64,000 nucleotides of DNA from an uncultured Gemmatimonadales bacterium (GTDB taxonomy: Bacteria > Gemmatimonadota > Gemmatimonadetes > Gemmatimonadales > Gemmatimonadaceae). The stretch is taken from positions 32,001 through 96,000 of the forward strand of contig CAWKNZ010000001.1 of NCBI GenBank assembly GCA_963851265.1, in the 5' to 3' direction. Position 1 is the first letter of the stretch; each line of letters begins with the position of its first letter. Of the stretch, positions 41,733 through 54,650 are shown piece after piece. A program made the translations under genes and the position numbers. Below the pieces are notes generated by a model. The model had not been told where the DNA came from, searched no databases, and worked only from the letters and a program-made list of their open reading frames with translations.

Positions 41733-44039
41733 ATGCCGCCGTCCGCTGATCGCCCCGTCGGCAACCCCGCGGTCGTGTCTGGTCACTCGGGACTGAGGGT
41801 CTACCGGGCGCTCCCCGCCGCCGCCGGGCTCGCCGCGCTCGCGATCGGCACGCTGGTGCTCGTCGGCTGGACCACCAGGCTGGTCGTCCTCACCCGCGGG
41901 CTTTGGGCGACCACCGCCACGATGCCCGACACCGCGGTCGCCATCGTGCTGCTCGGCGTGTCGCTCTGGCTCCTCCGCCCGCGCGACGGCCGCGCACCGG
42001 CCGCCGGCACGCCCGCCGTCGGCATCGGACGCCTGTGCGCCGCCACGGCCTGCGTGCTCGCGCTGCTCATGGGTTTCGAGTGGGTCTCCGGGCGCGACCT
42101 CGGCATCGATCGCCTGCTGTTCTCGAGCGCGTTGACCGACGCCGTGCGGAACGGCGTCAGCGCGACGCCCGGGCGCATGGCGGGCAACACCACGCTCGCC
42201 GTGTTCCTGCTCGGCGCCGCCCTCCTCCTGCTCGACGCGCCCGCCCTCGAGGGCCGCGGTGCGGGCGCGCGCCTCGGACGCATCGCGCGGTGGGCGTGCA
42301 ACGGACTCGGCATCCTGCTGCCGTACTTCGCGGTCGTCGGGTACCTGTTCGGAGTGCGGCGGCTGTACAACCCGTCCGGGTTGCTCGCCGGTATGGCCCT
42401 CACCACCGCGTGCGCACTCACCTGCGTGGCCGTCGGGACCTCGCTCGCGCGCCCCGCCCGGGGCGTCGCGCGGCTGCTCACCGGCGAGGACGCGGGCGCC
42501 CACCTGCTGCGGCGTTCGCTACCGGTGACCGCGTTCGTGCCGGTGCTGCTCGGCTGGCTGCGCATCCGTGGCGAGGAACTCGGCTTCTTCACACCGCGCG
42601 TGGGCGTGGCGGCTATCGTCCTCGCGTTCACGGTCGTGATGGTCACGACCCTCACCCGGGCGGGCGCCGCCGCGTACAAGCTCGCCGCCGACCGCGCCCG
42701 CATCCTCGGCGAACGCGAGGCGGCGCGCGAAGCCGCACGCGAGGCGCTGGAGCGCGGCGAGGCCGAGTTCCGGGAACTGGCCGACAACCTTCCGCAGCTC
42801 GCGTGGATGGCCGACGCCACCGGCTCGATCTTCTGGTACAACCGGCGCTGGTACGACTACACCGGAAGCACGCCTGACCAGATGCTCGGCTCGGGCTGGC
42901 GTGTGGTCCAGCACCCCGACCACCTCCAACGCGTCGAGAACGGCTACCGGACCGCCGTCGCGCGGGGCACGCCGTGGGAAGACACCTTCCCGCTGCGCTC
43001 GGCCGACGGCGAGTGGCGCTGGTTCCTCTCGCGCGCCAACCCGATGCAGGCGTCGAGCGGAGGGACGGTTCGCTGGTTCGGTACCAACACCGACGTCACC
43101 GCGCAACGCGCCCTCGAGGCCGAGCGCGAGCGCCTGCTCGCCGCCGAACGCCTCGCGCGCGCCGACGCGGAGCGCGCGAGCGCGGAAGCCGCTGCGGCGA
43201 GTCGCGCCAAGAGCCAGTTCCTGGCGACGATGAGCCACGAATTGCGCACCCCGCTCAACGCGATCTCGGGTCACGTGCAACTCGTCGAACTCGGCCTGCA
43301 CGGGCCCGTCACCCCCGAGCAGCGTGACGCGCTCAACCGCGCCCAGCGCGCCCAGCGCCACCTGCTCGGCCTCATCAACGACGTGCTCAACCTCGCGAAG
43401 ATCGAGGCCGGGCGCGCCGACTACCGCATGGACGAGGTCGTCGTCGCCGAGCTCGCCGCAGACGTCACGTCGCTCGTCGCCCCGCAGCTCGCGGCCAAGG
43501 GCGTCACCTTCGCCGTCGACGTGCCCGACGAGCACGCGGCCGTCGCGTGGGCCGACCGCGAGAAGACATCACAGGTGCTGCTCAACCTGTTGAGCAACGC
43601 GATCAAGTTCACCGACGCCGGCGGACACGTCACCCTCGAGGCGCGCGCCGAGGACGGCGGCGCCGGACCCGTCGTGGTCTTCCGCGTGCGCGACACCGGG
43701 CGCGGAATTCCGTTCGAAGACCGCGACCGCATCTTCGAGCCGTTCGTGCAGCTCGACGCCGGGTACGCGCGGCAGCAGGAGGGTACGGGACTCGGGCTCG
43801 CGATCAGTCGCGACCTCGCGCGCGGCATGGGCGGCGACCTCACGCTCGTGACGAGCAGTGAGGACCACGGGTCGGTGTTCGCGCTTACGCTCCCCCGCGT
43901 GCTGCCGTCTGGCCCCGACGCCGACCGCCGAACCGGCGAGGAGCGACGCGACGGTCAACGCCGCGAAACCGCCGACCGGCGCACCGGCGAGGAGCGGCGC
44001 GACGAGCTGCTGGACCCGAACATCACGTTCGACAACTGA
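41733..44039 (+). CDS. Membrane-bound PAS sensor histidine kinase with Arg-rich C-terminal tail
   Basis: About 8 TM helices, PAS 'WYNRRWYDYTG...WRWFLSRA', H-box 'MSHELRTPLN', G-boxes. Confidence 0.9.
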   Translation: MPPSADRPVGNPAVVSGHSGLRVYRALPAAAGLAALAIGTLVLVGWTTRLVVLTRGLWATTATMPDTAVAIVLLGVSLWLLRPRDGRAPAAGTPAVGIGRLCAATACVLALLMGFEWVSGRDLGIDRLLFSSALTDAVRNGVSATPGRMAGNTTLAVFLLGAALLLLDAPALEGRGAGARLGRIARWACNGLGILLPYFAVVGYLFGVRRLYNPSGLLAGMALTTACALTCVAVGTSLARPARGVARLLTGEDAGAHLLRRSLPVTAFVPVLLGWLRIRGEELGFFTPRVGVAAIVLAFTVVMVTTLTRAGAAAYKLAADRARILGEREAAREAAREALERGEAEFRELADNLPQLAWMADATGSIFWYNRRWYDYTGSTPDQMLGSGWRVVQHPDHLQRVENGYRTAVARGTPWEDTFPLRSADGEWRWFLSRANPMQASSGGTVRWFGTNTDVTAQRALEAERERLLAAERLARADAERASAEAAAASRAKSQFLATMSHELRTPLNAISGHVQLVELGLHGPVTPEQRDALNRAQRAQRHLLGLINDVLNLAKIEAGRADYRMDEVVVAELAADVTSLVAPQLAAKGVTFAVDVPDEHAAVAWADREKTSQVLLNLLSNAIKFTDAGGHVTLEARAEDGGAGPVVVFRVRDTGRGIPFEDRDRIFEPFVQLDAGYARQQEGTGLGLAISRDLARGMGGDLTLVTSSEDHGSVFALTLPRVLPSGPDADRRTGEERRDGQRRETADRRTGEERRDELLDPNITFDN

Positions 44040-44042
44040 CCC

Positions 44043-44537
44043 GTGGCCGAAACCACACTCGACCTGCGACACCTCCCCAAGCACGACGCCTACGCCCAGC
44101 TCGACGCGCATGTGCGCGCGGTGCTCGCCGGCGTCGACGACCCTATTGCCGGGATGGCGACCGTGAGCTGCCTCGTGCACCACGCCTTCGGCCACCTGTG
44201 GACCGGGTTCTACCGCGTCGTCGACCCCGGCCGGCTGCTGCGTGTGGGCCCGTACCAGGGCACGCTCGGCTGCCTCGACATCGCGTTCGGCCGCGGCGTG
44301 TGCGGCACCGCGGCGGCCGACGGGCGGACGGTGGTGGTCGAGGACGTCGAAGCGTTTCCGGGCCACATCGCATGCGACGCGCGGTCGCGCAGCGAGATCG
44401 TGGTGCCGGTGTGGGACCGCGACGGCGCGCTCCTGGCCGTGCTGGACGTGGACAGTGAGCGCGTGGGCGCGTTCGACGCCGACGACGCCGCGGGGCTGGC
44501 GCGGATCGTCGCACGCTTCGCCGAACCGCCGGCGTAA
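44043..44537 (+). CDS. msrC: GAF-domain protein, free methionine-R-sulfoxide reductase-like
   Basis: 'WTGFY', 'GPYQG..GC', 'GRGVCG', 'GHIACD..SRSEIVVP', 'LDVDS'. Confidence 0.8.
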   Translation: MAETTLDLRHLPKHDAYAQLDAHVRAVLAGVDDPIAGMATVSCLVHHAFGHLWTGFYRVVDPGRLLRVGPYQGTLGCLDIAFGRGVCGTAAADGRTVVVEDVEAFPGHIACDARSRSEIVVPVWDRDGALLAVLDVDSERVGAFDADDAAGLARIVARFAEPPA

Positions 44538-44610: not shown

Positions 44611-45234
44611 ATGGCCGTCCCCGGATACTCCGACCGCGTCAACCACGCGCTCGCCTTCGCCGCGAAGCACCACGACCGCGAGGTGCGCAAGGGCACGCGG
44701 GCGCCCTACTTCACCGCGCCGGCCAACGTGGCCGTGATCCTCACGCGCTACGATTGCGACGAGGACACCGTCGTGGCCGGGGTGCTGCGCCACGCGGTCG
44801 AGGACATGCTGCGCGACGGGGCGAGCGAGGACGGCGTGCACGAGCGCCTGGCCGACAAGTTCGGCCCCGACGCGGTGGAGGCGGTGCTGCACGTGGCCCG
44901 CCGCCGCTTCGACGACGACGGCGTCGAGCTGTCGCACGAGGAGCAGAAGCACGACACGCTCGACCGCCTCGCCAGCGCGTCGGACGCGGCGCGGTGGGCC
45001 TTCGCCGCACACGAGGTGCACGACGCGGCCACCCTCCTCGCCGACCTGCGGCGCACGAGCTTTCCCGACTCGGTATGGCAGCGCGTCGCCGAAGGGCCGG
45101 TCGGGCGAGTCCGCTGGTACCACGACGCCGCGGCACGCCTCGCCGCCGTCGGATTCCACGCCGGCATCATCGACGAGTTGCGCGGCGCCGCCGCAGCCCT
45201 CGACGGCAGCGCGCCCGCGTCGATGGCCCGATAG
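44611..45234 (+). CDS. Small alarmone-hydrolase-like HD protein with degenerate metal motif
   Basis: 'ALAFAAKHH..VRKG..APY' and 'VAGVLRHAVED...KFG' match the RelA/SpoT HD fold. Confidence 0.7.
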   Translation: MAVPGYSDRVNHALAFAAKHHDREVRKGTRAPYFTAPANVAVILTRYDCDEDTVVAGVLRHAVEDMLRDGASEDGVHERLADKFGPDAVEAVLHVARRRFDDDGVELSHEEQKHDTLDRLASASDAARWAFAAHEVHDAATLLADLRRTSFPDSVWQRVAEGPVGRVRWYHDAAARLAAVGFHAGIIDELRGAAAALDGSAPASMAR

Positions 45235-45476: not shown

Positions 45477-45532
45477 GCCCGGCGCTCGGCCCCGCCGCCC
45501 GCGCCGGCACCCCCGCACCCCGGATCGGCTGA
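45416..45532 (+). CDS. Putative 38-aa leader peptide (uORF 1)
   Basis: MSPRRNSSPRLPRARHIARVGPALGPAARAGTPAPRIG; its TGA overlaps the next ATG. Confidence 0.45.
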   Translation: MSPRRNSSPRLPRARHIARVGPALGPAARAGTPAPRIG

Positions 45533-46221
45533 TGCCCCTCGCCTTAACCTCGTTCCGCCGCGGCCTGCGCGCCGCCACGCCCGCGATCGCCCTCGGCACC
45601 GCAGCCCTCACCGCGGCGCTCGCGGCCTGCTCCGACAGCAACAGCCCGACTGGCCCGGTCGTCGCGAGCGCCCGCACGCCGCAGCCCGTTGGGCCCGCGT
45701 ATGCGACCGCGAGCACGGCGGCCTCCCAGGTGCTCAGCCAGACCCAGAGCGGCGACACCACGGTCACGACCCTGCAGCTCGGCACGAGCACCGGCCAGCT
45801 GGTCGCGCAGATCGGGAACGCGAGCAAGATCGTCTTCCCGTACGCCGCCGCTTCGGTGTGTGACCCGGCGAGCTCGAGCTATGGCATCGGCACGTGGAAC
45901 AGCCCGTGTACCGCCGCCACGACCCCGATCCAGATCACGGCTAAGACGTGGGTCGACCCGGAGACCGGCAAGACCCGGAGCAGCTTCTCGCCGGCGCTCC
46001 GCTTCGTGCCCGGGCTCAAGAGCAGCGGTCACGCTCTACCTCCACGACCCGAACCAGCGTCGCGAGGCGACGCGATCTGGTACTGTCCCGACGGCGCGCT
46101 CACGTTGCGTGGACGAGGCGAGCGCGGACCCGAGCGTGGCCACCCAGTACGGCAGCAGTAGCCAGCGGGTCTACGCGCGGCCATCAAGCACTTCTCCGGC
46201 TACACCGTCGTCGTCAACTGA
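45532..46221 (+). pseudogene. HFSGY-terminated lipoprotein 1, multiply frameshifted (sequence error or decay)
   Basis: Lipobox LAAC. Similarity to 52089-52829 alternates between two frames over 46020-46185 and ends IKHFSGYTVVVN-stop. Confidence 0.7.
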
Positions 46222-46225
46222 CGGC

Positions 46226-46293
46226 GCGCGGACGGACGCGATCGGGGGCAGTCGGGCAGATGCCCGACTGCCCCCGATCGCGTCCGTCCGCGC
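46226..46293. repeat. Perfect 33-bp inverted repeat with 2-nt spacer
   Basis: gcgcggacggacgcgatcgggggcagtcgggca-ga-tgcccgactgcccccgatcgcgtccgtccgcgc. Confidence 0.9.
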
Positions 46294-46419
46294 CGCACGA
46301 AGCCCGTCTCGCCCCGCGGTGCCGGGCGATGTCACGCCCGGCCGACATACCCGTCCTATCGACGGCCACCGAGTGGCCTCTCGATTCGCACGCCCGTTCC
46401 CGCCGTCCCTGGTCCGCGC

Positions 46420-49400
46420 ATGTCCGCGCTCGCGCATCCCGCGCCCCGCCCCGCACACCTCCGCCTCGTGCCGGCTCACGCCGACGCGCTGCAGACGCGC
46501 GTCGCCGAACTGGTAGCGAGGGGGCAGGAGGCCGAGCGGCAGGGGCATCGGGCCGCCGCCCGCGCGAGCTTCGAACAGGCGCTGCACGCGCTCGACGACG
46601 CGGCGACGGCGCGCGAGCACGCGTCGGCCATCGTGCGCATGATCGCGCGCACCTGCCAGATGGATTCCGAGCCGGACGCCGCGCTCGACTGCCTCGAACT
46701 CGCGCTGGCGATCGCCGAAGCCTGGGCCGACGGAACGGGCATCGGCCACGCCATCAACGGGCAGGCGATCGTGAACTGGCAGACGGGGCGCCTCGATGAG
46801 GCGGAGCGCCTGTACCTGCTCGCGCGCACGCGCGCCCTGCAGAGCGGCGACGCGAAGCTCGCGGCGATGACCGCACAGAACCTCGGCGTCCTCGCGAACG
46901 CGCGCGGCGACTACGAGGTCGCCCAGCGCCACTACGAGCGGAGCCTCGCCGAGTACCGCGTGCTCGGCCTCACGCACGACGTGGCCGTCGCGCTCAACAA
47001 CCTGGGACGGCTGCACACCGCGCGCGGGCAGTGGAAGGCGGCGGAGCAGGTGCTCGTCGAGGCCGCCGAGATCTGCGACCTCGCGGGCGACGTTGCCACA
47101 CGCATCGCGGTCGACGCGAACGTGGCGGAGATGTGGGTCGCGCAGGGCGCGTTCGACCGCGCGCAGGCCGCGGTCACCCGCGCGATCGAAGGTGCGACGA
47201 ACGTCGGGGACACGTCGGTCCTGGGGCAGGCGGACAAACTGCTCGGGATCATCGCGCGCGAGGCGGGCGAGTTCGTGACCGCCGAACGGTATTTCGTACA
47301 TGCCGACGAGGTGGCGAGGGCGCGCCAGGACGTGCTGCTCCAGGCGGAGATCGCCCGCGAGCGCGGGGACCTGGCGCAGCGCGTCGGGAAGAACCGCGAC
47401 GTGCTGCAGCACCTCAATCGCTCGCACCGGCTGTTCACCGAGTTGCGCGCGGGCGCCGACGTGGCCGACATCGACCGGCGGCTCGGCGGGCTCGAGGCGC
47501 AGTTCCTCGAGGTCGCGCGCCGGTGGGGCGAGTCGATCGAGTCGAAGGACTGCTACACCCAGGGGCACTGCCAGCGCGTGGCCGACCTCGCGTGCCTCCT
47601 CGCCGAGCACGCGGGGGCCGACCACGGCTTCGACGCGCAGGCCATGTTCTGGTTCCGGATCGGGGCGCTGCTGCACGACGTCGGCAAGCTGATGATTCCG
47701 CCCGAGGTGCTCAACAAGCCGGGCAAGCTGACCGACGAAGAGTGGATCCTGATGCGGAGCCACACGACCGCGGGGGTGGCGATCCTCGCCGACATCGAAT
47801 TCCCCTGGGACGTCCGCCCGATCATCGAGTCGCACCACGAGCGGTGGGACGGGCGCGGATACCCGAACCGCCTCGTCGGCGAGGCCATCCCGCTCACCGC
47901 GCGCATTCTGTGCGTGGCCGACGTCTACGACGCGCTCACCTCGGTCCGGTCGTACAAGCGCGCCCTGACGCACGACGAGGCCGTGGGCATCATGCGCCGC
48001 GACGTCGGGACCATGTTCGACCCGCAGGTGTTTGCCTGGTTCGAGGAGATCGCCGCCGAGTGGGCGGGGCGCGTCGCCGCACCCGACGCGTCGCCGCCTG
48101 CCGCCGCCGCACCGGCGGTCGCGCCGCCCGCAGCGCCGGCGTCCGAAACCGGGACGTCGTCGGTGAGCGAGTCGGAAGCCCCCGCGCGCGCCGACGTGCC
48201 CGACGACCTCACCGGGCTGCCGCTCCGGCGAGCGTTCCGCGATACCGCCGAACGCATCCTCGCCGCGCGGCGGACCACCGGCCGGCCGGTGTCGCTGCTC
48301 GTCATCGACGTCGACCACTTCAAGCTCGTCAACGACACCTTCGGGCACCTGCAGGGCGACGACATCCTGCGGGCCGTGGCCGACCAGATCCGAGCCAGCA
48401 CCCGCCCGGTCGACTACCCGGCACGGTACGCGGGCGACGAGTTCGTGGTGCTCCTGCCCGGGACACGGCTCGACGAGGCACGGGCCGTGGCCGAGCGGAT
48501 CCGGTCGGCGGTCGCGCGTGCGACCTGTCCGCGGCGCGACGGACCGGGCGTGGTCTCGGTGACGCTGTCGATCGGTGTCGCGACCCTCCCGCAGCACGGC
48601 GAGACCCTCGAAGCCCTGTTCGCGGCGTCCGATGCGGCGCTCTACGACGCCAAGCGCGCCGGCCGGAATGCCGTGAGCGCGGGGTCGGCCGACGCCGACC
48701 GGCGCCGTGACCTGATGCTTGAGTGCTTCGTGGGGCGTGTGGCCGAGCGTGCCCACCTGCGCGAGCGCCTCGACGCGGCCGCCCAGGGCCGCCCGCACGT
48801 GGTCGCCGTGTGCGGCGAGGCGGGCGTCGGCAAGTCGACGCTGGTCAAGCAGCTCGCACCCGACGTCGGCATTCGCTCCGGCTCGCTCATCACCGGGCGG
48901 TGCGTCGACACCGACCTGCGCGCGCCGTACGCGCCCTGGGTGGACGCGGTGCTCGGCGTGCTCCGTGCCGGCATCGCCCCCCGGCATGCGTGGCGCGAGC
49001 TGACGCGCCTCGTCCCCGAGCTGGTCGGCGGTGCGGACGCGTCCCGTCGCGAGACGGGTTCGCCGCACGCGCTGCTCGAGGAACTCGACCTCTTCTTCCG
49101 CCTCGCGTCGGAGATCCGACCCATAGTCGTCGTGCTCGACGACATGCAGTGGGCGGACACTGCCAGCTGGAGCGCGCTCGAGTACCTCGTCGGCCGGTTC
49201 GACACGCAGCGGCTGCTGATCTGCCTCACCATCCGCGCCGAGGACCTCGACGATGCGGGCGACGCACGCCGCCGCCGGCTCTCGCGCGCCGACGTCTATA
49301 CCGAGATCTCGCTCCCCCGGCTCACCGAGGCGGACCTCGCGCTGTGGCTGCGGACGGCCCTCGGAGGCCAGGAGCCCGAGCCTGCGCTCCTCGCCTACCT

Positions 49401-51240
49401 CGTCGCGCAGAGCGAGGGGAACTCGTTCTTCGCGCTGCAGACGCTCCGCGCGCTCGCCGACGACGAGCGCCTGACGTTCGTCGACGGGCGCTGGACGTTC
49501 GATGCCGCGGCCGACGGCTCCATGCCGCGCGCGATCCACGATCTGCTCGCGCGCCGGGTCGCTCGGCTCGACCGACCCTGCCGCGACGCCCTCGCGGTCG
49601 CGGCCGTCCTCGGACGCGAGTTCGACCCGGAGACCCTGGTCGCGGCGTGCGAGGGGAACGAGGCCGGGGTACTCGACGCCCTCGATGCCGGGATGGAGGC
49701 CGCGGTGCTGGTCCCGTCCGAGATCTCGCCGACGGCCGTCGCGTTCGCGCACACGCTCCTCACGCGCGTGCTGCAGGACGGGATCAACCCGCTGCGCCTG
49801 CGTCGCATTCACGAGCGCGTGGGGCGTGCGCTGGAGTCGCGCGGCGGGCACGCGCCGGCCCAGGTCGCGCTGCACTTCGACCGCGCGGGGTGTGCCGAGG
49901 ACGCCTACCGGACGGCCATGAACGCCGGCGCGCGCGCGGCCGACCTGTACGCGTACGAGACGGCGGCGGACCTCTTCGAGATGGCACTCCGGCACGCGCG
50001 CACGCTGCGCGAGACGGCCGACGTCGAGTGGCGCACCGCGCAGATCGCCGAGATCCGCGGCCGCTACGCCGACGCGGAACGTGCGTGCGACGCCGTCCTC
50101 ACCACGTTCGCCAGCGGGGCGGCGGAGATCGGGATCCTGCGTGCGGCGCGCCGCATGCGCGAGCGACTCCGCCTTCAGCGAGGGGCGTCGGCGAGCCAGG
50201 TCGCCGAGACGTGTACCGAACTGCTCGCCGAGGCGCGCGCGGCCGGTGCCGACGAGGAGATCGTCCCGCTCCTGATCATGATCTCGACGGCGCACGGGCG
50301 GCGCGGCGACGGGTCCGAAGCGGCGCGAATCGCCCGCGACGCGAACGACGAGGCCGAGCGGCTCCGCAGCCTCCCGCTCCAGGCGGACGCCGCGATGCGG
50401 CTCGGGTCGACGGTCCTCGAGATCAGTCCCGCCGACGCCGTCCCGCACTACCGGCGGGCGCTCGACATCTTCACGCGCCTCGACAACCGGTACGGGCAGC
50501 TGCGCGCACAGATCAACATCGGCGTGGCCTGCGACCGGGCGGGGAACAGCCCGGGGGCGGAGGTCTCGTACGCGACCGCGCTGTCGATCGGGCGCGACAT
50601 CCGCGCGACGGACCTCACCGGCATCGCGTCGCTCAACCTCGGCGTGCTCCTGCTCAAGACTGGCCGGTTCGACGGCGCACGGGAGCGCTTCGAGGAGGCG
50701 CGACAGCTCTTCGTGACGATCGCGAACGAGCCGTACCGACTGGCCGCGCTGTACAACCTCGCGAACGTCGCCCGCGAGTGCGGCGACGCGGCCGGCGCGC
50801 TCGAGCTGTACGGCGCGGCCATCTCGCTCGCCGAGTCGTTGGGTCACGCCGACGTGCACGCCGGCGCCCTCGCCGGCGCCGGATTGGCCGAACTCGACCT
50901 CGGCGCGATGCGCGGCGCGCGCGTGCACCACGACGCCGTGCGCGCGCTCGTCGACGGGCGGACGGACGCGTGGTTCGAGGGGCGCGAGCTGTGCGAGGCG
51001 CTCGACGTCCGGCTCGCCGCGCAGGATGGGTCGGAGTCCGAGGCGGTCGCCCGACTGCTCGACGCGCTCGACCGCGCGGAGCTGCACAACCAGTACGCCG
51101 CCATCTGGCTCGGGGCCGAGTGCGCGGCCGTGCTCCGGAGCGCGGGACGCGTGGCCGAAGTCACGCTGCACCGGTTCCTCGTGCACGCGCGCGCCCTCGG
51201 CTACGACCCGCTCGTCACGCGACTGCGCGCGGACGGTTAG
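46420..51240 (+). CDS. TPR / HD-GYP / GGDEF / AAA (STAND-like) / TPR multidomain signalling protein
   Basis: TPR-like 'AQNLGVL','LNNLGRL'; 'LLHDVGK...HHERWDGRGYP'; 'DVDHFKLVNDTFGH..GD...RYAGDEF'; 'GEAGVGKS','VLDDMQWAD'; C-terminal TPR-like repeats. Confidence 0.92.
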   Translation: MSALAHPAPRPAHLRLVPAHADALQTRVAELVARGQEAERQGHRAAARASFEQALHALDDAATAREHASAIVRMIARTCQMDSEPDAALDCLELALAIAEAWADGTGIGHAINGQAIVNWQTGRLDEAERLYLLARTRALQSGDAKLAAMTAQNLGVLANARGDYEVAQRHYERSLAEYRVLGLTHDVAVALNNLGRLHTARGQWKAAEQVLVEAAEICDLAGDVATRIAVDANVAEMWVAQGAFDRAQAAVTRAIEGATNVGDTSVLGQADKLLGIIAREAGEFVTAERYFVHADEVARARQDVLLQAEIARERGDLAQRVGKNRDVLQHLNRSHRLFTELRAGADVADIDRRLGGLEAQFLEVARRWGESIESKDCYTQGHCQRVADLACLLAEHAGADHGFDAQAMFWFRIGALLHDVGKLMIPPEVLNKPGKLTDEEWILMRSHTTAGVAILADIEFPWDVRPIIESHHERWDGRGYPNRLVGEAIPLTARILCVADVYDALTSVRSYKRALTHDEAVGIMRRDVGTMFDPQVFAWFEEIAAEWAGRVAAPDASPPAAAAPAVAPPAAPASETGTSSVSESEAPARADVPDDLTGLPLRRAFRDTAERILAARRTTGRPVSLLVIDVDHFKLVNDTFGHLQGDDILRAVADQIRASTRPVDYPARYAGDEFVVLLPGTRLDEARAVAERIRSAVARATCPRRDGPGVVSVTLSIGVATLPQHGETLEALFAASDAALYDAKRAGRNAVSAGSADADRRRDLMLECFVGRVAERAHLRERLDAAAQGRPHVVAVCGEAGVGKSTLVKQLAPDVGIRSGSLITGRCVDTDLRAPYAPWVDAVLGVLRAGIAPRHAWRELTRLVPELVGGADASRRETGSPHALLEELDLFFRLASEIRPIVVVLDDMQWADTASWSALEYLVGRFDTQRLLICLTIRAEDLDDAGDARRRRLSRADVYTEISLPRLTEADLALWLRTALGGQEPEPALLAYLVAQSEGNSFFALQTLRALADDERLTFVDGRWTFDAAADGSMPRAIHDLLARRVARLDRPCRDALAVAAVLGREFDPETLVAACEGNEAGVLDALDAGMEAAVLVPSEISPTAVAFAHTLLTRVLQDGINPLRLRRIHERVGRALESRGGHAPAQVALHFDRAGCAEDAYRTAMNAGARAADLYAYETAADLFEMALRHARTLRETADVEWRTAQIAEIRGRYADAERACDAVLTTFASGAAEIGILRAARRMRERLRLQRGASASQVAETCTELLAEARAAGADEEIVPLLIMISTAHGRRGDGSEAARIARDANDEAERLRSLPLQADAAMRLGSTVLEISPADAVPHYRRALDIFTRLDNRYGQLRAQINIGVACDRAGNSPGAEVSYATALSIGRDIRATDLTGIASLNLGVLLLKTGRFDGARERFEEARQLFVTIANEPYRLAALYNLANVARECGDAAGALELYGAAISLAESLGHADVHAGALAGAGLAELDLGAMRGARVHHDAVRALVDGRTDAWFEGRELCEALDVRLAAQDGSESEAVARLLDALDRAELHNQYAAIWLGAECAAVLRSAGRVAEVTLHRFLVHARALGYDPLVTRLRADG

Positions 51241-51256
51241 GCGGTCAGGCGCGCGC

Positions 51257-51415
51257 TCAAGTCGCGCCGGGCTGTTGCCGATACTCCGGCCCGAGGGCGT
51301 CGCCACCTCCGGCGCCGCGCCTCGACCCACCCCGCTTCCACAGCAACGACGCATATGTCGCCACGCCGCAACAGCAGCCCCCGGCTGCCGCGCCTGCGCC
51401 ACATCGCCCGCGTCC
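51257..51415 (+). repeat. Duplicated leader block, copy 2 (sigma28-like promoter at 51257-51283 + uORF start)
   Basis: TCAAG-N15-GCCGATA, then a block nearly identical to 45350-45476. Confidence 0.85.
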
Positions 51416-51474: not shown

Positions 51475-52089
51475 ATGCGCCACCTCACATCATTCCGCCG
51501 CGCCGTGCACGTCGCGACGCCCGCGCTCGCCCTCGGCACGGCCGTCGTCACGGCCGCCCTCGCCGCCTGCTCCGACACCCCGACCGGGCCGGCCACTCCG
51601 AACGCGGCCGAAGCCGCGTTCCATCCGGGCCTGCACGCGAACGTGTCCTCGAGTCCGATGGCGGTCACGCCCGTCAAGCGGACGCAGCGTGTCGCGCAGG
51701 ACTCGGTCGTCACCTTCACCGTGCAGCCCGGCGGGACGACGTTCCGCGGCCCGGACGCCTCGATCAGCTTCCCGGCCGGGTTCGTGACCAAGCCGACGCA
51801 GTTCACGGCCACCCGCAAGGGTGGCAGCGCCCTCGCCTACGACTTCCAGCCCTCGGGCACCTTCACGAAGCCGGTGACGGTCACGTTCACGCTCGCAGGG
51901 GCGGCGATCCCGGCCGGCGCGAATCTCTCGGCGCTGCAGGGCGCCTACGTGCAGGATTGGAGTCAGGTCAGCGACTCCACGGCTGCGGTCAGCGAACTCG
52001 AGCCCACCACGGTCGACCCGAAGTCGGGCACGGTGACGATGACCCTCTCGCACTTCTCCGGCTACCTCGTCTCGTGGGGGCGGCGCTAA
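51475..52089 (+). CDS. HFSGY-terminated lipoprotein 2 (ZU5-like)
   Basis: Lipobox LAAC; 'GG...ISFPAG...FQPSGTFTKPVTVTF' is ZU5-like; ends LSHFSGYLVSWGRR. Confidence 0.8.
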   Translation: MRHLTSFRRAVHVATPALALGTAVVTAALAACSDTPTGPATPNAAEAAFHPGLHANVSSSPMAVTPVKRTQRVAQDSVVTFTVQPGGTTFRGPDASISFPAGFVTKPTQFTATRKGGSALAYDFQPSGTFTKPVTVTFTLAGAAIPAGANLSALQGAYVQDWSQVSDSTAAVSELEPTTVDPKSGTVTMTLSHFSGYLVSWGRR

Positions 52090-52829
52090 TGCGTAGCACG
52101 TTCGCCCCCCTGCGTTACGCCGTGCGCGCGGCCACGCCCGCGCTCGCCCTCGGCGTCGCCACGCTCACCGCGGTGCTGGCCGCGTGCTCCGATAGCTCCA
52201 CCGGCCCGACGCAGCCCAGCGCGCCGTCGGCGAGTCGTGCGGTCGCTCCGCCGCCCCCCGCGGCGATGCTCGCCGCGCTCTCGCAGGGCGTCCAGGGCGC
52301 GACCACCGGCCCGTCGTTCTCCCGCGTGGCCGAGCAGTCGGCGGTGGCGCACGGCGATACCGCCATCATCACGCTGACCTTCGACCCCACGGTCGCGCAC
52401 ACCGTCGCGTTCAACACGCGCACCAGCCAGAACGGCGTCGCCCTCGCCGCCAACTCGGTGTGCAACCCGGCGACGTCGGGCTACGGGCCACTCCTGTGGG
52501 ACGCGCCGTGCCAGGTGGCGACGAAGCCCTTCACCCTCACCGTCCGGGGCTGGATGGGAACCGATGGCCAGCCGAAGGTCGCGTTCTCGCCGGACATCCG
52601 GTTCGCGCCGTCGGCCACCAACTGGCTCTGGCTGGCGGGACCCGGCGCCGGGTCCGCGAAGGGCGTGATCGCGTGGTGCCCGACGGCCGGCGGCCTGTGC
52701 GTCAACGAGTCCGCGCTCGACGGAAGCGTGATGACCGGCACCGACAAGGGGATCTACTACCGGCGGATCAAGCACTTCTCCGGCTACACCGTGGTGGTGA
52801 ACCGGACCGGGGCGGTCGACGGTCTCTGA
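52089..52829 (+). CDS. HFSGY-terminated lipoprotein 3
   Basis: TAATG coupling to the upstream gene, lipobox LAAC, four further Cys, ends IKHFSGYTVVVNRTGAVDGL. Confidence 0.8.
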   Translation: MRSTFAPLRYAVRAATPALALGVATLTAVLAACSDSSTGPTQPSAPSASRAVAPPPPAAMLAALSQGVQGATTGPSFSRVAEQSAVAHGDTAIITLTFDPTVAHTVAFNTRTSQNGVALAANSVCNPATSGYGPLLWDAPCQVATKPFTLTVRGWMGTDGQPKVAFSPDIRFAPSATNWLWLAGPGAGSAKGVIAWCPTAGGLCVNESALDGSVMTGTDKGIYYRRIKHFSGYTVVVNRTGAVDGL

Positions 52830-52869: not shown

Positions 52870-52932
52870 GCACGCGGAAACACACGGGGCCGCCGGGCGA
52901 CATGCCCGGCGGCCCCGTGTGTTTCCGCGTGC
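52870..52932. terminator. Perfect 29-bp inverted repeat between convergent genes (bidirectional terminator candidate)
   Basis: gcacgcggaaacacacggggccgccgggc-gacat-gcccggcggccccgtgtgtttccgcgtgc. Confidence 0.8.
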
Positions 52933-52937
52933 GAGCC

Positions 52938-54650
52938 TCAGCGTGTGGCCACCGTGCCGTGCGCGGCCTGCCCGGAATCGCCCGCGATGCCCCAGTCGGC
53001 GATTCCGGCCCACCAGGCGTCGGCGCGCATCGCGACCGGTCGCAGGTCCCGTCGCACGGCGGCGATGCTGCGCGGCTCGTATAGCCACACCGCGGGCGCG
53101 TCGTCGATGATCGTGGCGTAGGCGCGCCGAACGAGTGCCGTGCGGCGCTCCGGCTGGAACTCGGCGGAGGCGCTGTCGAGGAGCGCGTCGAAGGTCGCGT
53201 TCGTCCAGCGCCCGGAGTTGGCGCCGCCGTCCGCGCCGCGCGGCGTGCCCCAGTCGTGGCGCAGCGTGGTCGGATTCGGGTCGGTTCGCCACGAATTGAG
53301 CGCGACGTCGAAGTCGCCCGCGTGCAGGCGCTCGATGAAGCTTCCCGGGTCGACCGCGTCGATGTTCACGCGCACGCCGATCTGGGCCAGCTGGGCCTGC
53401 AGCAGCACCGCGAGACGCATGCGCGGCACGCTACTCGTGGGAACGAGGAGTGCGAGGTCGAGCGGCCGGCCGGCGCGCGCGCGCCGGCCCGACGTCGGGT
53501 CGAGCCGCCAGCCCAGGGCGTCGAAGCCGCGCGCCGCGGCGGCCGGATCGTAGGCGATCTGGCGGAGCGTCGTATCCGCCGTGGGTTGCGCGCGCGTGAA
53601 CGGTCCGAGGGCGACGCGGGCGCTGGGGCCGAGCGCGTTGCGCACCACCGCCGCGCGGTCGATCGCCTGGGTGAGCGCGACGCGTGCGGCGCGGTCGGCG
53701 AACGGCGCACCGATGCCGGCCCCGCGCGCGCCGGTGCGCGCCCGCTCGTTGAAGACGAGGAAGGCGTAATCCAGGCTGCCGTATTCGACGGTGCGCAGCC
53801 GGGGCGAGCGCGCCGCGCGGTCGATGGCCTCGCCGCGGACGGCTTCGAGCACGTCCGCCTGCCCCGACAGGACGCTGGCGAGCGCCGCGTTGGGGTCGCC
53901 GGTGACCGTCCAGACGACGCGGTCGAATCGCGGACGGCCGCGGTAGTTGGTCGTATCGGCGTTGAGGGTCAGCTGACGGTGGTGGTCCCAGGCGGCGAAC
54001 CGGTAGCGTCCGGAGCCGATCGGATGCGCGGCGAACGCGGACGTCGCGACGGCCGAACGCGGTACGCTGCCGAGCAGGTGCTCGGGCATCACGGCCAGGT
54101 TGTAAGCGACCTGGAAGAACTGCTCGGGGGAGCGGCGGTGCCACCACACGACGGCGGTGAGCGAGTCGCGCACGGCGACCGAGTCCATGCCCGCGAAATC
54201 GGAGGCGTGGACCGAAGCGCCCGTCGTGTCGGTGAACAGGGCGAACGAGAAGCGTACGTCGCGCGCGCGTACCGGCCGGCCGTCGTGCCAGCGTGCGCGC
54301 GGGTCCAGCTCGAAGGCGATCGAGAGCGAATCGGGGGCCCACGTCCAGCGCCGTGCGAGCTGCGGGCGGTAGCCGCCGTCGCCGTTGGTGGGGACCGAGT
54401 CGTCGGCGGTCGCGAGATGGTCGAAGACGAGGTCGACCGCCTGCTTGCCCTGGGTCGTGGCGACGAGCGGCGGGATCAGCTGGTCGGCGTCGGCCGGCGT
54501 CGCGATCACGAGGGCCTGGGCTCCGCGTCCCGACGGGGGGGTGCCGCGTCCGCAGGCCGCGACGGTGAGGGCCGCGAGCGCGGCGAGCGGGAGCGCGTGC
54601 GGGCTGGGGGCGTGCGGGCGGGGGGCGTGCGGGCGCGGCGACGGCGGCAT
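52938..54650 (-). CDS. Peptide/nickel ABC transporter substrate-binding lipoprotein (family 5)
   Basis: Lipobox VAAC, 'PQLARRW', 'RWHDGRPV.ARDVRFSF', 'PIGSGRYRF', 'ALTQAIDR'. Confidence 0.88.
   Translation of the reverse strand: MPPSPRPHAPRPHAPSPHALPLAALAALTVAACGRGTPPSGRGAQALVIATPADADQLIPPLVATTQGKQAVDLVFDHLATADDSVPTNGDGGYRPQLARRWTWAPDSLSIAFELDPRARWHDGRPVRARDVRFSFALFTDTTGASVHASDFAGMDSVAVRDSLTAVVWWHRRSPEQFFQVAYNLAVMPEHLLGSVPRSAVATSAFAAHPIGSGRYRFAAWDHHRQLTLNADTTNYRGRPRFDRVVWTVTGDPNAALASVLSGQADVLEAVRGEAIDRAARSPRLRTVEYGSLDYAFLVFNERARTGARGAGIGAPFADRAARVALTQAIDRAAVVRNALGPSARVALGPFTRAQPTADTTLRQIAYDPAAAARGFDALGWRLDPTSGRRARAGRPLDLALLVPTSSVPRMRLAVLLQAQLAQIGVRVNIDAVDPGSFIERLHAGDFDVALNSWRTDPNPTTLRHDWGTPRGADGGANSGRWTNATFDALLDSASAEFQPERRTALVRRAYATIIDDAPAVWLYEPRSIAAVRRDLRPVAMRADAWWAGIADWGIAGDSGQAAHGTVATR

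Follow-up and report, generated by a model that had tools for sequence, protein, structure and literature searches.

The window, by which we mean the whole 64,000-nucleotide stretch of DNA analyzed here, contains a gene whose product joins five modules in the order eight TPR units, HD-GYP, GGDEF, AAA_16/STAND NTPase, and about 12 TPR units (Table 1). Its codon-position GC (0.77/0.50/0.93) is like that of the remaining genes in the window, which has a GC content of 73%. On the opposite strand lies a 1743-aa antisense open reading frame (46171-51402), Arg/Gly-rich, which reads as a shadow frame. The neighborhood holds lipoprotein genes of two types, both marked by an HFS motif, a solute-binding protein gene, and two perfect inverted repeats. 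A scan of the locus for promoters gave 0 promoter-like sites, and a scan for terminators was uninformative, with 3 terminator-like sites versus 1.2 expected.

Table 1. Features of the five-module locus, in window coordinates
Feature	Position (nt)	Strand	Residues and details	Basis
Type-B HFS lipoprotein copy, disrupted, 5' of the five-module gene	45532..46218	+		
Perfect 33-bp inverted repeat, between disrupted lipoprotein gene and five-module gene	46226..46293	.		
Five-module gene	46420..51240	+	1606 aa; stop included	ORF call, Pfam
N-terminal TPR array	46477..47451	+	20-344; 16 helices, about 8 TPR	Pfam, AF2
Linker helix joining TPR to HD-GYP	47467..47544	+	350-375	AF2
HD-GYP domain	47545..48078	+	376-553 (AF2 model 383-553)	Pfam, alignment, AF2
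HD-GYP sites	47833-47865 (HHERWDGRGYP)	+	HD 419-420; HHERWDGRGYP 472-482	
Ala/Pro-rich disordered linker	48082..48192	+	555-591	pLDDT under 50
GGDEF domain	48193..48687	+	592-756 (AF2 model 603-760)	Pfam, NCBIfam, PleD alignment
GGDEF sites	48403-48414 (RPVD); 48430-48444 (AGDEF)	+	RPVD 662-665; AGDEF 671-675	
AAA_16/STAND NTPase with helical and winged-helix arm	48727..49779	+	770-1120	Pfam, AF2, Foldseek
NTPase sites	48814-48837 (Walker A); 49126-49143 (Walker B)	+	EGNSFF 999-1004	
C-terminal TPR, putative sensor	49789..51228	+	1124-1603; about 24 helices	Pfam, AF2
Type-A HFS lipoprotein	51475..52089	+	204 aa; lipobox Cys32; HFS 193-195	
Type-B HFS lipoprotein	52089..52829	+	246 aa; 16-residue tail	
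Perfect 29-bp inverted repeat, in the gap where lipoprotein and SBP genes converge	52870..52932	.		
Family-5 solute-binding lipoprotein (peptide/nickel type), conserved neighbor	52938..54650	-		

An earlier note, made from the DNA letters, had described one protein of five modules with TPR-like arrays at both ends, and Pfam and AF2 agree with this description. Pfam finds TPR_12 in seven stretches (E 3e-31), HD_5 at 393-537 (4.8e-36) and HD at 382-505 (5.8e-21), GGDEF at 595-750 (1.8e-43; 148.6 bits against a cut-off of 23.8), and AAA_16 at 770-934 (4.8e-28); a TPR_MalT match at 1361-1587 stays under its cut-off (26.3 versus 45 bits), and an NCBIfam match to a NosR-type phosphodiesterase (PDE) covers residues 304-549. 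The two AF2 models, each of part of the protein, reach pLDDT values of 91.2 (NTPase/C-terminal TPR part) and 88.8. Because no 20-aa window exceeds 11 strongly hydrophobic residues, a transmembrane segment is absent, as had been noted, and this protein of a soil bacterium is predicted to be cytoplasmic.

The HD-GYP domain, which had been called intact-looking, carries LLHDVGK (417-423) as well as the HHERWDGRGYP motif in a sequence scan. Its HD-superfamily metal ligands are complete (H383, H419-D420, H448, H472-H473, and D501), align to those of V-cGAP3, and, together with E474, D477, G478, G480, and Y481, are invariant in an alignment of 25 sequences with 48-80% identity. In a motif census of the best 120 homologues, HHExxDGxGYP occurs in 115 and LLHD[VIL]GK in 119. 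The domain superposes (VIA) on 4mcw over 196 aa with a Z-score of 25.3 and an rmsd of 2.0, and shares its metal-ligand and GYP residues with the HD-GYP phosphodiesterases PmGH (4mcw), PA4781 (4r8z), V-cGAP3 (5z7c), and RpfG, whose regulatory domain is REC or GAF where the five-module protein has an eight-TPR array. Matches to PDB sequences range from E 1e-31 to 8e-42, and as the best of them is a 3'3'-cGAMP PDE, the choice of substrate is not fixed by sequence.

The GGDEF domain superposes on solved GGDEF domains with Z-scores of 26-27 and rmsd values of 1.2-1.6 (VIA; 3ign, Z 27.1, rmsd 1.5; PleD, Z 26.8). The variant AGDEF A-site and the RPVD I-site read in the earlier note are both present, five residues apart, and align to GGEEF and RAID of PleD, respectively; the A-site thus departs from the canonical GG[DE]EF. 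Among the best 120 homologues, AGDEF is found in 108, GGDEF in 4, and AGDE[ML] in 5 (the motif was unread in 3), and RxxD is missing from 5 of the 112 with xGDEF. The 25-sequence alignment shows no variation at ten residues (D630, D632, N638, D647, D665, G672, D673, E674, K745, and R749). Six of these (D630, D632, N638, D647, K745, and R749) align to PleD positions that we take to be the Mg/GTP ligands and the transition-state Lys/Arg (D327, perhaps D329, N335, D344, K442, and R446), with N638 and D647 presumably falling on the ligands of the GTP base and D647 on the guanine-specificity position. In the cGAMP-making 'Hypr' GGDEFs, this position is a Ser; we ruled out this identity for the domain because D647 is an Asp, as in PleD. 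Overall, the conservation supports the view that the active-site residues of both the HD-GYP and the GGDEF domains have been kept under long-term selection. Two short paralogues that lack the AAA_16-TPR part have dead A-sites (SEREF and AAGEF) and have lost the Mg/GTP residues, with RGGD kept. In these two paralogues, A-site decay coincides exactly with loss of the STAND part, on which the A-site would therefore depend.

The replacement of the first Gly of the motif by Ala in 108 of the 120 homologues raises the alternative that the protein is a phosphodiesterase only. In this scenario, the AGDEF domain would make no c-di-GMP; it would bind GTP at the A-site and/or c-di-GMP at the I-site and tune the HD-GYP domain, while the STAND-TPR part would govern the assembly or localization of the PDE. 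Degenerate GGDEF domains tune their partner in some GGDEF-EAL enzymes. The 4.6-Mb window genome already encodes at least 13 GGDEF-EAL proteins, and the short paralogues retain RxxD after A-site loss, which suggests that I-site binding alone is useful beside an HD-GYP domain. In a census by Seshasayee et al. (2010), 74 of 1034 HD-GYP proteins are hybrids with GGDEF; GAU1030 of Gemmatimonas aurantiaca, which is probably the member of the five-module family in that species, is listed there as one of two such hybrids without an intact A-site (PMC2952852). The AGDEF of NbdA has been termed degenerate (bioRxiv 10.64898/2026.03.20.713172); that of VCA0965 from V. cholerae is reported to be catalytically active (PMC3974145), which speaks against the phosphodiesterase-only reading. 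So do the invariant Mg/GTP ligands and A-site Lys/Arg, the coincidence of A-site decay with STAND loss, and the fact that AGDEF is also common (32 of 71) in stand-alone GGDEF-AAA_16-TPR proteins, where there is no PDE domain for it to control. We consider this reading unlikely.

In the NTPase, GEAGVGKS (799-806, Walker A) and VVVLDD (903-908, Walker B) are in place, and G799, G802, G804, K805, and D908 are invariant in the 25 sequences. The AF2 model has the layout of a STAND protein, with the effector N-terminal and followed by the NTPase, an arm of helical and winged-helix parts, and an array of repeats. The best Foldseek match for this half is the STAND-TPR protein 6mfv (E 2.1e-14, 754 columns), with further matches to Avs3, Apaf-1, and MalT; differences in domain orientation keep the TM-scores low (0.2-0.36). 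Modeled fold and motifs together support the earlier note's reading of the NTPase as STAND-like. The Walker motifs and the combination of NTPase, helical arm, and TPR sensor are shared with MalT/PH0952-type STAND proteins, in which the effector is a DNA-binding domain rather than a pair of c-di-GMP enzymes. The N-terminal TPR array superposes (VIA) on the LGN TPR (Z 27.3, 236 aa, rmsd 3.4) and RapI (Z 24.6, 273 aa, rmsd 3.3), and the C-terminal array on LGN (Z 28), Rap with pheromone (8rsu, Z 25.9), MalT domain III (1hz4, Z 25.5, 330 aa, rmsd 4.5), and NprR-NprX (Z 21.4), but any TPR superhelix gives high scores of this kind, which do not indicate function.

The earlier note had also called for a domain-architecture search. 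Judged by the homologues collected, the TPR-HD-GYP-GGDEF-AAA_16-TPR architecture is a lineage-wide family of Gemmatimonadota and not a one-off. The full five-module form turned up in no bacterial family other than that of the window, the organisms named by the sources are all Gemmatimonadota, and the window genome holds a second full-length copy. Among the matches listed in a profile search of genome contigs, one is a full-length relative, encoded by a Gemmatimonadetes MAG, and many are genes from other phyla with HD-GYP alone or HD-GYP-GGDEF. A candidate HD-GYP-GGDEF-AAA_16-TPR protein from a Terriglobia MAG (L072) proved to be two genes, and matches in the window genome that reach about residue 841-859 are GGDEF-EAL proteins and not more GGDEF-NTPase fusions.

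Both halves also exist as separate genes: stand-alone TPR-HD-GYP genes (query residues 25-545) are spread across the phylum, and stand-alone GGDEF-AAA_16-TPR genes (query residues about 600-1603) are present in the window's family. When residues 590-1189 were used as the query, 71 of the best 148 representatives (50% identity) were N-terminal-GGDEF-AAA_16 proteins, and GGDEF adjoins AAA_16 plus repeats in 20 of 25 scanned proteins. In the tree of the N-terminal half, 21 stand-alone rows are split from 17 fused and 2 short rows by one branch (support 99/93; seen in 98% of 200 bootstrap trees). In that of the C-terminal half, 14 fused rows are grouped on one side (SH-aLRT 98), beside stand-alone forms of the same family. 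Both trees fit one ancestral fusion of a TPR-HD-GYP gene with a GGDEF-AAA_16-TPR gene, of which the disordered linker is evidently the junction.

We regard it as probable that the protein is a bifunctional cytoplasmic c-di-GMP turnover enzyme with a STAND-assembled cyclase, which arose through a single end-to-end fusion of two sensor-enzymes, each complete in itself, in an ancestor within the window's own bacterial family. The anatomy, conservation, fusion history, and synteny are observed; catalysis by the AGDEF domain, ATP-driven assembly, and gating by the TPR arrays are what we infer. In this model, the first half would be a TPR-HD-GYP phosphodiesterase whose eight-TPR array is coupled to catalysis through a single signaling helix, so that binding of a ligand or partner at the array may set PDE activity. 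The second half would be a GGDEF-AAA_16-TPR cyclase of STAND-switch design: a ligand at the C-terminal TPR would lift autoinhibition, ADP would be exchanged for ATP in the NTPase, and the ensuing oligomerization would unite GGDEF domains, as a diguanylate cyclase requires, with the RxxD I-site presumably limiting output via product inhibition.

The linker between the halves is disordered and 37 residues long, so the two probably retain separate inputs. The two-input switch that had been proposed is supported at the level of modules, which occur as separate genes with their own lipoprotein types, while the gating by TPR arrays is still conjectural. A competing possibility is a reciprocal switch with one input, in which STAND oligomerization by a single ligand would activate the cyclase and reshape the geometry of the HD-GYP dimer; the N-terminal array would then not be a second sensor but would act as a scaffold or as a surface for self-association. 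The fusion has long been retained in many genera, which suggests a gain from physical coupling, and TPR-TPR contacts between partners have been reported for RcbA/RcbB (PMC12282931). However, the pLDDT of the linker separating the halves is under 50, both halves live on as independent genes that travel with different lipoprotein types, and an N-terminal TPR homologue also exists as a TPR-only protein adjoining a sigma-54 activator, which fits a portable sensor. We consider such a one-input switch quite improbable.

Among the closest known designs to the bifunctional, STAND-assembled enzyme that we favor are the class III cyclase-AAA_16-TPR proteins (mycobacterial Rv0386-type and the TOMM kinase/cyclase fusion TIGR03903), which have the same order of cyclase, AAA_16, and TPR; a Pkinase-GGDEF-AAA_16-TPR arrangement that we also found (P0239) mirrors the latter. 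GGDEF domains share a common ancestry with those of class III cyclases (Pei and Grishin 2001, cited in PMC7159879). In contrast to these proteins, the five-module protein has a GGDEF (c-di-GMP) instead of a cAMP/cGMP cyclase, lacks an HTH, and carries an additional TPR-HD-GYP part fused N-terminally. TIGR03903 matches only residues 770-1181, and with 110.3 bits against a cut-off of 705.75, the protein is not a member. In Vibrio vulnificus, a TPR domain represses the diguanylate cyclase RcbB, a TPR-GGDEF protein, and the partner RcbA relieves this repression (PMC12282931), a precedent for TPR control of a GGDEF domain; RcbB is not known to have a STAND NTPase or an HD-GYP domain, and it is paired with a TPR protein of the cytoplasm instead of an exported lipoprotein. 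The hybrids of the census likewise combine the opposing domains on one chain, whereas the census leaves aside STAND/TPR parts, fusion history, and neighborhood and counts AGDEF as not intact (PMC2952852).

The genes next to the five-module gene bear on what its TPR arrays may read. The stop codon of the type-A lipoprotein gene overlaps the start of the type-B gene (TAATG), and the type-A protein has a 10-residue tail beyond the F|S position. In the disrupted type-B copy upstream, about 25 pre-motif codons lie in another frame, an in-frame stop occurs at 46159-46161, and the ...KHFSGY... end resumes in the original frame. HFS is invariant in 28 type-A sequences with a mean identity of only 20%, and each of the 12 type-B sequences has HF[ST]; the neighboring lipoproteins thus carry an H-x-S/T motif of the cleavage type known from MAIN/GAIN-like domains. 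Of the 94 cases in which type A adjoins a TPR-HD-GYP gene, 86 have it immediately 5', with a median gap of 78 bp; type B lies directly 3' of GGDEF-AAA_16-TPR genes, and more than 100 operon pairs were found in all. Both types flank the fused gene, and genes for a family-5 binding protein of the peptide/nickel type and for ABC permeases are often close by; SBP_bac_5 and BPD_transp_1 genes were seen next to the loci. These data support a newly found link of each half of the fused protein to its own lipoprotein type. Five of the seven HFS lipoprotein copies of the window genome adjoin TPR-HD-GYP-bearing genes; at 5 of the 16 fused loci examined (L028-L032), among them the second full-length copy of this genome, no HFS lipoprotein was found within 7 kb. 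The same lipoprotein type also precedes TPR-only and sigma-54 activator genes, which makes the TPR, and not c-di-GMP, the shared denominator.

This synteny opens the way for a tentative hypothesis, which we hold to be rather doubtful, that the five-module enzyme is the receiver of an undescribed peptide-signaling system with the lipoprotein tail peptides as ligands. The exported lipoproteins would cut themselves at the HFS motif, and C-terminal tails of 7-16 residues would be freed, perhaps by mechanical or proteolytic envelope stress, and imported via the neighboring family-5 binding protein and ABC permeases. Matching cytoplasmic TPR arrays would then read them, type A acting on HD-GYP activity and type B on STAND assembly of the cyclase. 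As in RRNPP receptors (Rap, NprR, and PlcR) with Opp import, a cytoplasmic TPR protein is fused to an output domain, its gene adjoins one for a putative exported precursor, and genes for permeases or a binding protein of the Opp family are close at hand; Rap/NprR can be superposed on each of the two TPR arrays (Z 21-26), by way of resemblance only. Unlike in RRNPP systems, the precursor is a 200-250-aa lipoprotein with a self-cleavage-type HFS motif rather than a small pro-peptide, the host is a diderm outside the Firmicutes, and the outputs are c-di-GMP enzymes.

Alternatively, the lipoproteins and the solute-binding protein may be cargo under shared regulation with the c-di-GMP enzymes, such as proteins of the envelope or of adhesion, and not sources of ligands, with the TPR arrays sensing something else or binding cytoplasmic partners. 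The lipoproteins are predicted to be exported whereas the enzymes are cytoplasmic, and the solute-binding protein, whose scores reach none of the NCBIfam equivalog cut-offs, might have nickel or opines as its ligand. In the Bacillus MAIN domain, cleavage occurs between F and S; the products stay associated, and the preprint proposes surface-protein release, not signaling peptides (10.64898/2026.05.12.724683). Against cargo stand the type-specific and phylum-wide pairing (A with TPR-HD-GYP, B with GGDEF-AAA_16-TPR) at gaps of tens to hundreds of bp, the position of most lipoprotein copies of the genome beside TPR-HD-GYP-bearing genes, and the recurrence of the same lipoprotein type before TPR-only and sigma-54 activator genes. 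We see cargo as a serious possibility, although we lean against it.

The five-module architecture is so far uncharacterized, and our literature search found no characterized diguanylate cyclase under the control of a STAND NTPase, even though roughly one in two of the 148 best representative clusters consists of GGDEF-AAA_16-repeat proteins. If STAND assembly activates the GGDEF domain, this would be a general new mode of c-di-GMP activation that parallels induced proximity of the apoptosome type. The fusion offers a natural experiment in coupling synthesis and breakdown of one messenger. If the peptide hypothesis is true, an RRNPP-like circuit in a diderm phylum would be wired to c-di-GMP and would also reach transcription through the TPR-only and sigma-54 activator genes. 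The type-specific pairing of TPR enzymes and HFS lipoproteins across the phylum makes the ligands of bacterial TPR sensors directly testable and bears on what microbial GAIN-like domains serve. As for a GAIN/ZU5-like beta-sandwich fold of the lipoproteins, there are weak leads to ZU5: a Pfam match in one homologue (E 6e-4) and the nearest Atlas clusters, in which 38-51% of members carry ZU5.

Our analysis established the anatomy of the five-module enzyme and the modular history of both its halves. We also observed a conserved partnership of this enzyme with lipoproteins of a self-cleaving type, which is the surprising part and merits bench work. The gene is one ORF of 1606 codons, and its third-position GC of 0.93 is the coding signature of a window with 73% GC; the translation of a longer antisense ORF (46171-51402) is Arg/Gly-rich, as is typical of a shadow frame. 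Pfam places the modules in the order TPR_12 repeats, HD_5/HD (residues 382-537), GGDEF (595-750), AAA_16 (770-934), and TPR again. NCBIfam adds a GGDEF match, a match of residues 304-549 to a NosR-type HD-GYP regulator, and a sub-threshold match of residues 770-1181 to a TOMM kinase/cyclase fusion, the last of which corresponds to the AAA_16 and TPR part common to the enzyme and cyclase-STAND proteins. All motifs named in the earlier note are present, and the sequence holds no TM-like stretch, as it had claimed.

Two AF2 models built from family alignments (pLDDT 91.2 and 88.8) predict 16 helices forming eight TPRs at residues 20-344, a single long linker helix (350-375), the HD-GYP domain (383-553), an Ala/Pro-rich disordered linker (555-591), the GGDEF domain (603-760), and a P-loop domain with a helical and winged-helix arm, followed by about 24 TPR helices up to the C terminus. 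In fold searches, the modeled GGDEF domain superposed on PleD and others (Z 26-27, rmsd 1.2-1.6) and the HD-GYP domain on PmGH (Z 25.3, rmsd 2.0, 196 residues) and PA4781 (Z 25.2); for the C-terminal half, Foldseek ranked 6mfv, a STAND-TPR protein of solved structure, first (E 2.1e-14), and it also listed Avs3, Apaf-1, and MalT. The fold searches agree with the sequence-based domain calls. The C-terminal TPRs superposed on MalT domain III (Z 25.5), Rap-pheromone complexes (Z 25.9), and LGN (Z 28), values commonly reached by long TPR superhelices, which indicate shape rather than function.

A word-indexed homolog search with the enzyme gave 1223 matches, the best 120 of which are 1210-1675 aa long, share 48-80% identity with it, and all carry HD_5, GGDEF, and AAA_16 in precomputed Pfam annotation. 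Of these 120, 115 carry the HD-GYP signature, 119 the HD motif, and 117 one of the ten most frequent Walker A forms. The HD-GYP metal and GYP residues, the Mg, GTP, and transition-state residues of GGDEF, and the Walker residues are invariant in a 25-sequence alignment; the P-loop and the two active sites are under purifying selection. Since the GGDEF motif reads AGDEF in 108 of the best 120 homologs (GGDEF in 4, AGDE[ML] in 5, the remaining 3 unassigned), Ala at its first position is the norm of the family and no lesion of the window copy. RxxD is missing in 5 of the 112 xGDEF-bearing homologs in this set. Aligned with PleD, RPVD falls on the I-site and N638 and D647 on the guanine ligands; Ser-bearing "Hypr" GGDEFs are promiscuous for ATP and GTP, and Asp at 647 argues for GTP over such promiscuity. 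The literature on AGDEF activity is split. A bioRxiv preprint on NbdA reportedly calls its AGDEF degenerate. The AGDEF enzyme VCA0965 of V. cholerae makes c-di-GMP in vivo and in vitro (PMC3974145). A 2010 census counted two HD-GYP/GGDEF hybrids whose site is not intact, GAU1030 of Gemmatimonas aurantiaca among them (PMC2952852); GAU1030 is probably our homolog P0077, a member of the enzyme's family, by a match made without locus tags.

All organism names given in the sources for full-length relatives belong to the Gemmatimonadota (Gemmatimonas, Gemmatirosa, Roseisolibacter, and MAGs). Among 301 genomes of the phylum, full-length matches were confined to the window's own family, in a search with a stricter first look whose counts are lower bounds. 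Elsewhere each half has a gene of its own: TPR-HD-GYP genes (query 25-545, about 550-650 aa long) are spread across families and classes, and GGDEF-AAA_16-TPR genes (residues about 600-1603 of the query, about 1015-1130 aa long) are present in several genera within the window's family. In that family, with each genus represented by one genome, 36 of 71 genomes had a match to the C-half query. A profile-free search with residues 590-1189 returned 4853 representatives at E<=1e-30, and 71 of the best 148 of them have a GGDEF motif in their first 200 residues (37 GGDEF, 32 AGDEF), followed by Walker A. GGDEF adjoins AAA_16 plus repeats in 20 of 25 representatives scanned with Pfam, with TPR sensors in 18, HEAT in 2, and HD-GYP also present in 3. 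The three-module cyclase thus has a widespread, unstudied architecture. Individual representatives vary: by Pfam, P0239 from a Blastocatellia MAG carries a Ser/Thr kinase in front (Pkinase-GGDEF-AAA_16-TPR), P0178 and P0268 have GGDEF-AAA_16 with HEAT-repeat sensors instead of TPR, P0145 (1274 aa) has seven GGDEF stretches, and P0139 (3225 aa) combines three AAA_16 stretches with a kinase and a class III cyclase.

A careful IQ-TREE analysis of the N-half (40 rows; a quick version was also made) separates 21 stand-alone TPR-HD-GYP rows from 17 fused and 2 short ones (split 99/93; 98% of 200 bootstrap trees). A quick one of the C-half (32 rows, excluding the near-copies L020, L022, and L023 and the partial L060, L063, and L064) groups 14 fused rows (SH-aLRT 98) beside stand-alone forms of the window's family. 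Because both trees are unrooted, a single origin of the fusion is the simplest reading, not proof. Besides the window copy, its genome holds another full-length one (59% identity) and two short ones of the form TPR-HD-GYP-GGDEF, which nest within the fused clade, as well as at least 13 GGDEF-EAL proteins. In the short copies, which are without the STAND part, the Mg/GTP residues are gone (A-site SEREF and AAGEF) and RGGD is kept. The A-site is thus retained only together with the STAND part.

HD-GYP domains hydrolyze c-di-GMP, GGDEF activity requires two domains brought together, STAND NTPases assemble upon ligand binding and ATP, and RxxD confers product inhibition. From this family knowledge, the enzyme is best read as a phosphodiesterase, whose HD-GYP half would hydrolyze c-di-GMP under the N-terminal TPR, tethered to a cyclase that STAND assembly upon ligand and ATP would turn on and that RxxD would subject to product inhibition. 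The two-input switch proposed in the earlier note is a hypothesis that fits the modular evidence of two halves; the observation behind it was confirmed and its interpretation is partly supported. In a search with most subscription journals outside its reach, we found no published description of GGDEF-STAND/AAA_16-TPR or HD-GYP-GGDEF-TPR proteins, no paper on a diguanylate cyclase together with a STAND NTPase, and, for Gemmatimonas and c-di-GMP, only a one-line census mention. The enzyme is assembled from known kinds of module in a new arrangement.

Features at the enzyme locus (window positions)
Feature	Position	Strand	Remark
PAS histidine kinase and stand-alone GAF genes	41733-44537	+	768 aa and, 4 bp on, 164 aa; upstream of locus
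HD_4 gene (RelA/SpoT-type hydrolase-like)	44611-45234	+	207 aa; E 1.7e-11; between GAF and disrupted lipoprotein genes
Type-B lipoprotein copy, disrupted	45532-46218	+	directly upstream of enzyme gene
Perfect hairpin, 33-bp stem	46226-46293		no T-run
Five-module enzyme gene	46420-51240	+	
Type-A lipoprotein gene	51475-52089	+	
Type-B lipoprotein gene	52089-52829	+	start overlaps stop of type-A gene
Perfect hairpin, 29-bp stem	52870-52932		no T-run
Family-5 solute-binding lipoprotein gene	52938-54650		convergent with type-B gene

The window contains three lipoprotein paralogs of two types, A and B; all have the lipobox Cys and, C-terminally, HFSGY. The two hairpins flank the stretch from the enzyme to the intact type-B gene, and no such hairpin lies between the enzyme and type-A genes. 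Strong members of the family number only seven in the 4.6-Mb genome: these three, one beside each short paralog, and an orphan pair. Across 28 type-A sequences sharing only 20% identity, neither HFS nor the lipobox Cys varies, and 12 type-B sequences all keep HF[ST], the lipobox Cys, and two more Cys. A 2026 preprint shows that microbial GAIN-like autoproteolytic (MAIN) domains cleave an HFS motif between its F and S, the products staying associated, and its accessible portion makes no mention of lipoproteins, TPR, c-di-GMP, or Gemmatimonadota (10.64898/2026.05.12.724683). The Gemmatimonadota HFS lipoproteins have an N-terminal anchor and just 7-16 residues, mostly the last strand, past the predicted cut site.

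By family profile, 11 of 16 fused loci have members no more than 7 kb away, and members adjoin 15 of 18 stand-alone TPR-HD-GYP loci (with a weak case at another and none at two) and 7 of 14 GGDEF-AAA_16-TPR loci, all these loci being chosen from the top of the 301-genome match list, not at random. Comparison with the two intact window copies separated the types cleanly: copies beside stand-alone TPR-HD-GYP are all type A, except a split fragment in locus L045 scoring to neither, typed copies beside stand-alone GGDEF-AAA_16-TPR are all type B, and fused genes are accompanied by A, B, or both. The type-A profile matched 134 of the 301 genomes, at 150 places among the matches listed and 93 further. 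Within the matches listed, 106 of the 150 places are within 5 kb of a listed enzyme relative (94 beside stand-alone TPR-HD-GYP, 11 beside fused genes, 1 beside TPR-HD-GYP-GGDEF), type A lies upstream on the same strand in 86 of the 94 (median gap, 78 bp), and, conversely, 85 of 115 stand-alone TPR-HD-GYP genes have a listed type-A copy nearby. With one genome per genus, type B matched 22 of 71 genomes, and 28 of its 48 places are within 1.6 kb of a GGDEF-AAA_16-TPR-bearing gene, 12 beside fused and 16 beside three-module genes, directly downstream of the latter on the same strand in 14 cases (gaps, 20-394 bp). The lipoproteins are thus syntenic with the enzyme halves in a type-matched manner. 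We give counts rather than P-values because kin are not independent; the tallies contain a handful of rows from genomes flagged unpublished (G057, G182; G320), and the result is independent of them.

In the boldest of the surviving readings, the lipoprotein tails would be the two ligands, imported by the neighboring transporter. The solute-binding protein (SBP_bac_5) recurs in 16 loci and two ABC permease genes in 8; in L018, L021, L022, and L023, a divergent type-A gene is followed by those for the solute-binding protein, both permeases, and the fused enzyme on one strand. Against this reading, cleaved strands normally stay bound, the solute-binding protein could bind nickel or opines, and 5 of the 16 fused loci are without lipoproteins nearby.

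In the disrupted type-B copy, some 25 codons of the homologous reading lie out of frame and an in-frame stop intervenes before the frame is regained for the HFSGY end; either a pseudogene or an assembly error could explain this. The start of its tail is identical in the intact type-B gene and in an orphan gene on contig C3. The orphan tandem pair there (G000 C3:263821-265607; L065 6822-8608) has no TPR enzyme nearby, its neighbors being a GMC oxidoreductase, a BNR-repeat protein, NamZ, and a PAS-GAF histidine kinase. The PAS kinase and GAF genes upstream of the enzyme were rejected as conserved neighbors, the tblastn matches near some orthologs being partial and confined to the histidine-kinase domain, and the HD_4 gene was not found near enzyme orthologs.

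A sigma-54 activator occurs in 11 loci. By Pfam, the activator of L033 and L037 has no receiver domain, and before it comes a TPR-only protein with homology to the N-terminal TPR; the same sensor module seems wired to transcription in such operons. Their order in these other Gemmatimonadota (L033 7590-10497, L037 7563-14904) is type-A lipoprotein(s), TPR-only protein, activator, and TPR-HD-GYP, sometimes duplicated and with SBP_bac_5 after it. In a Terriglobia MAG (L072 580-9784), a Mutator-family transposase is followed by an HD-GYP-GAF-GGDEF gene and then by a 1653-aa Pkinase-AAA_16-TPR-Sigma54_activat protein, a STAND protein with a sigma-54 AAA+ output.
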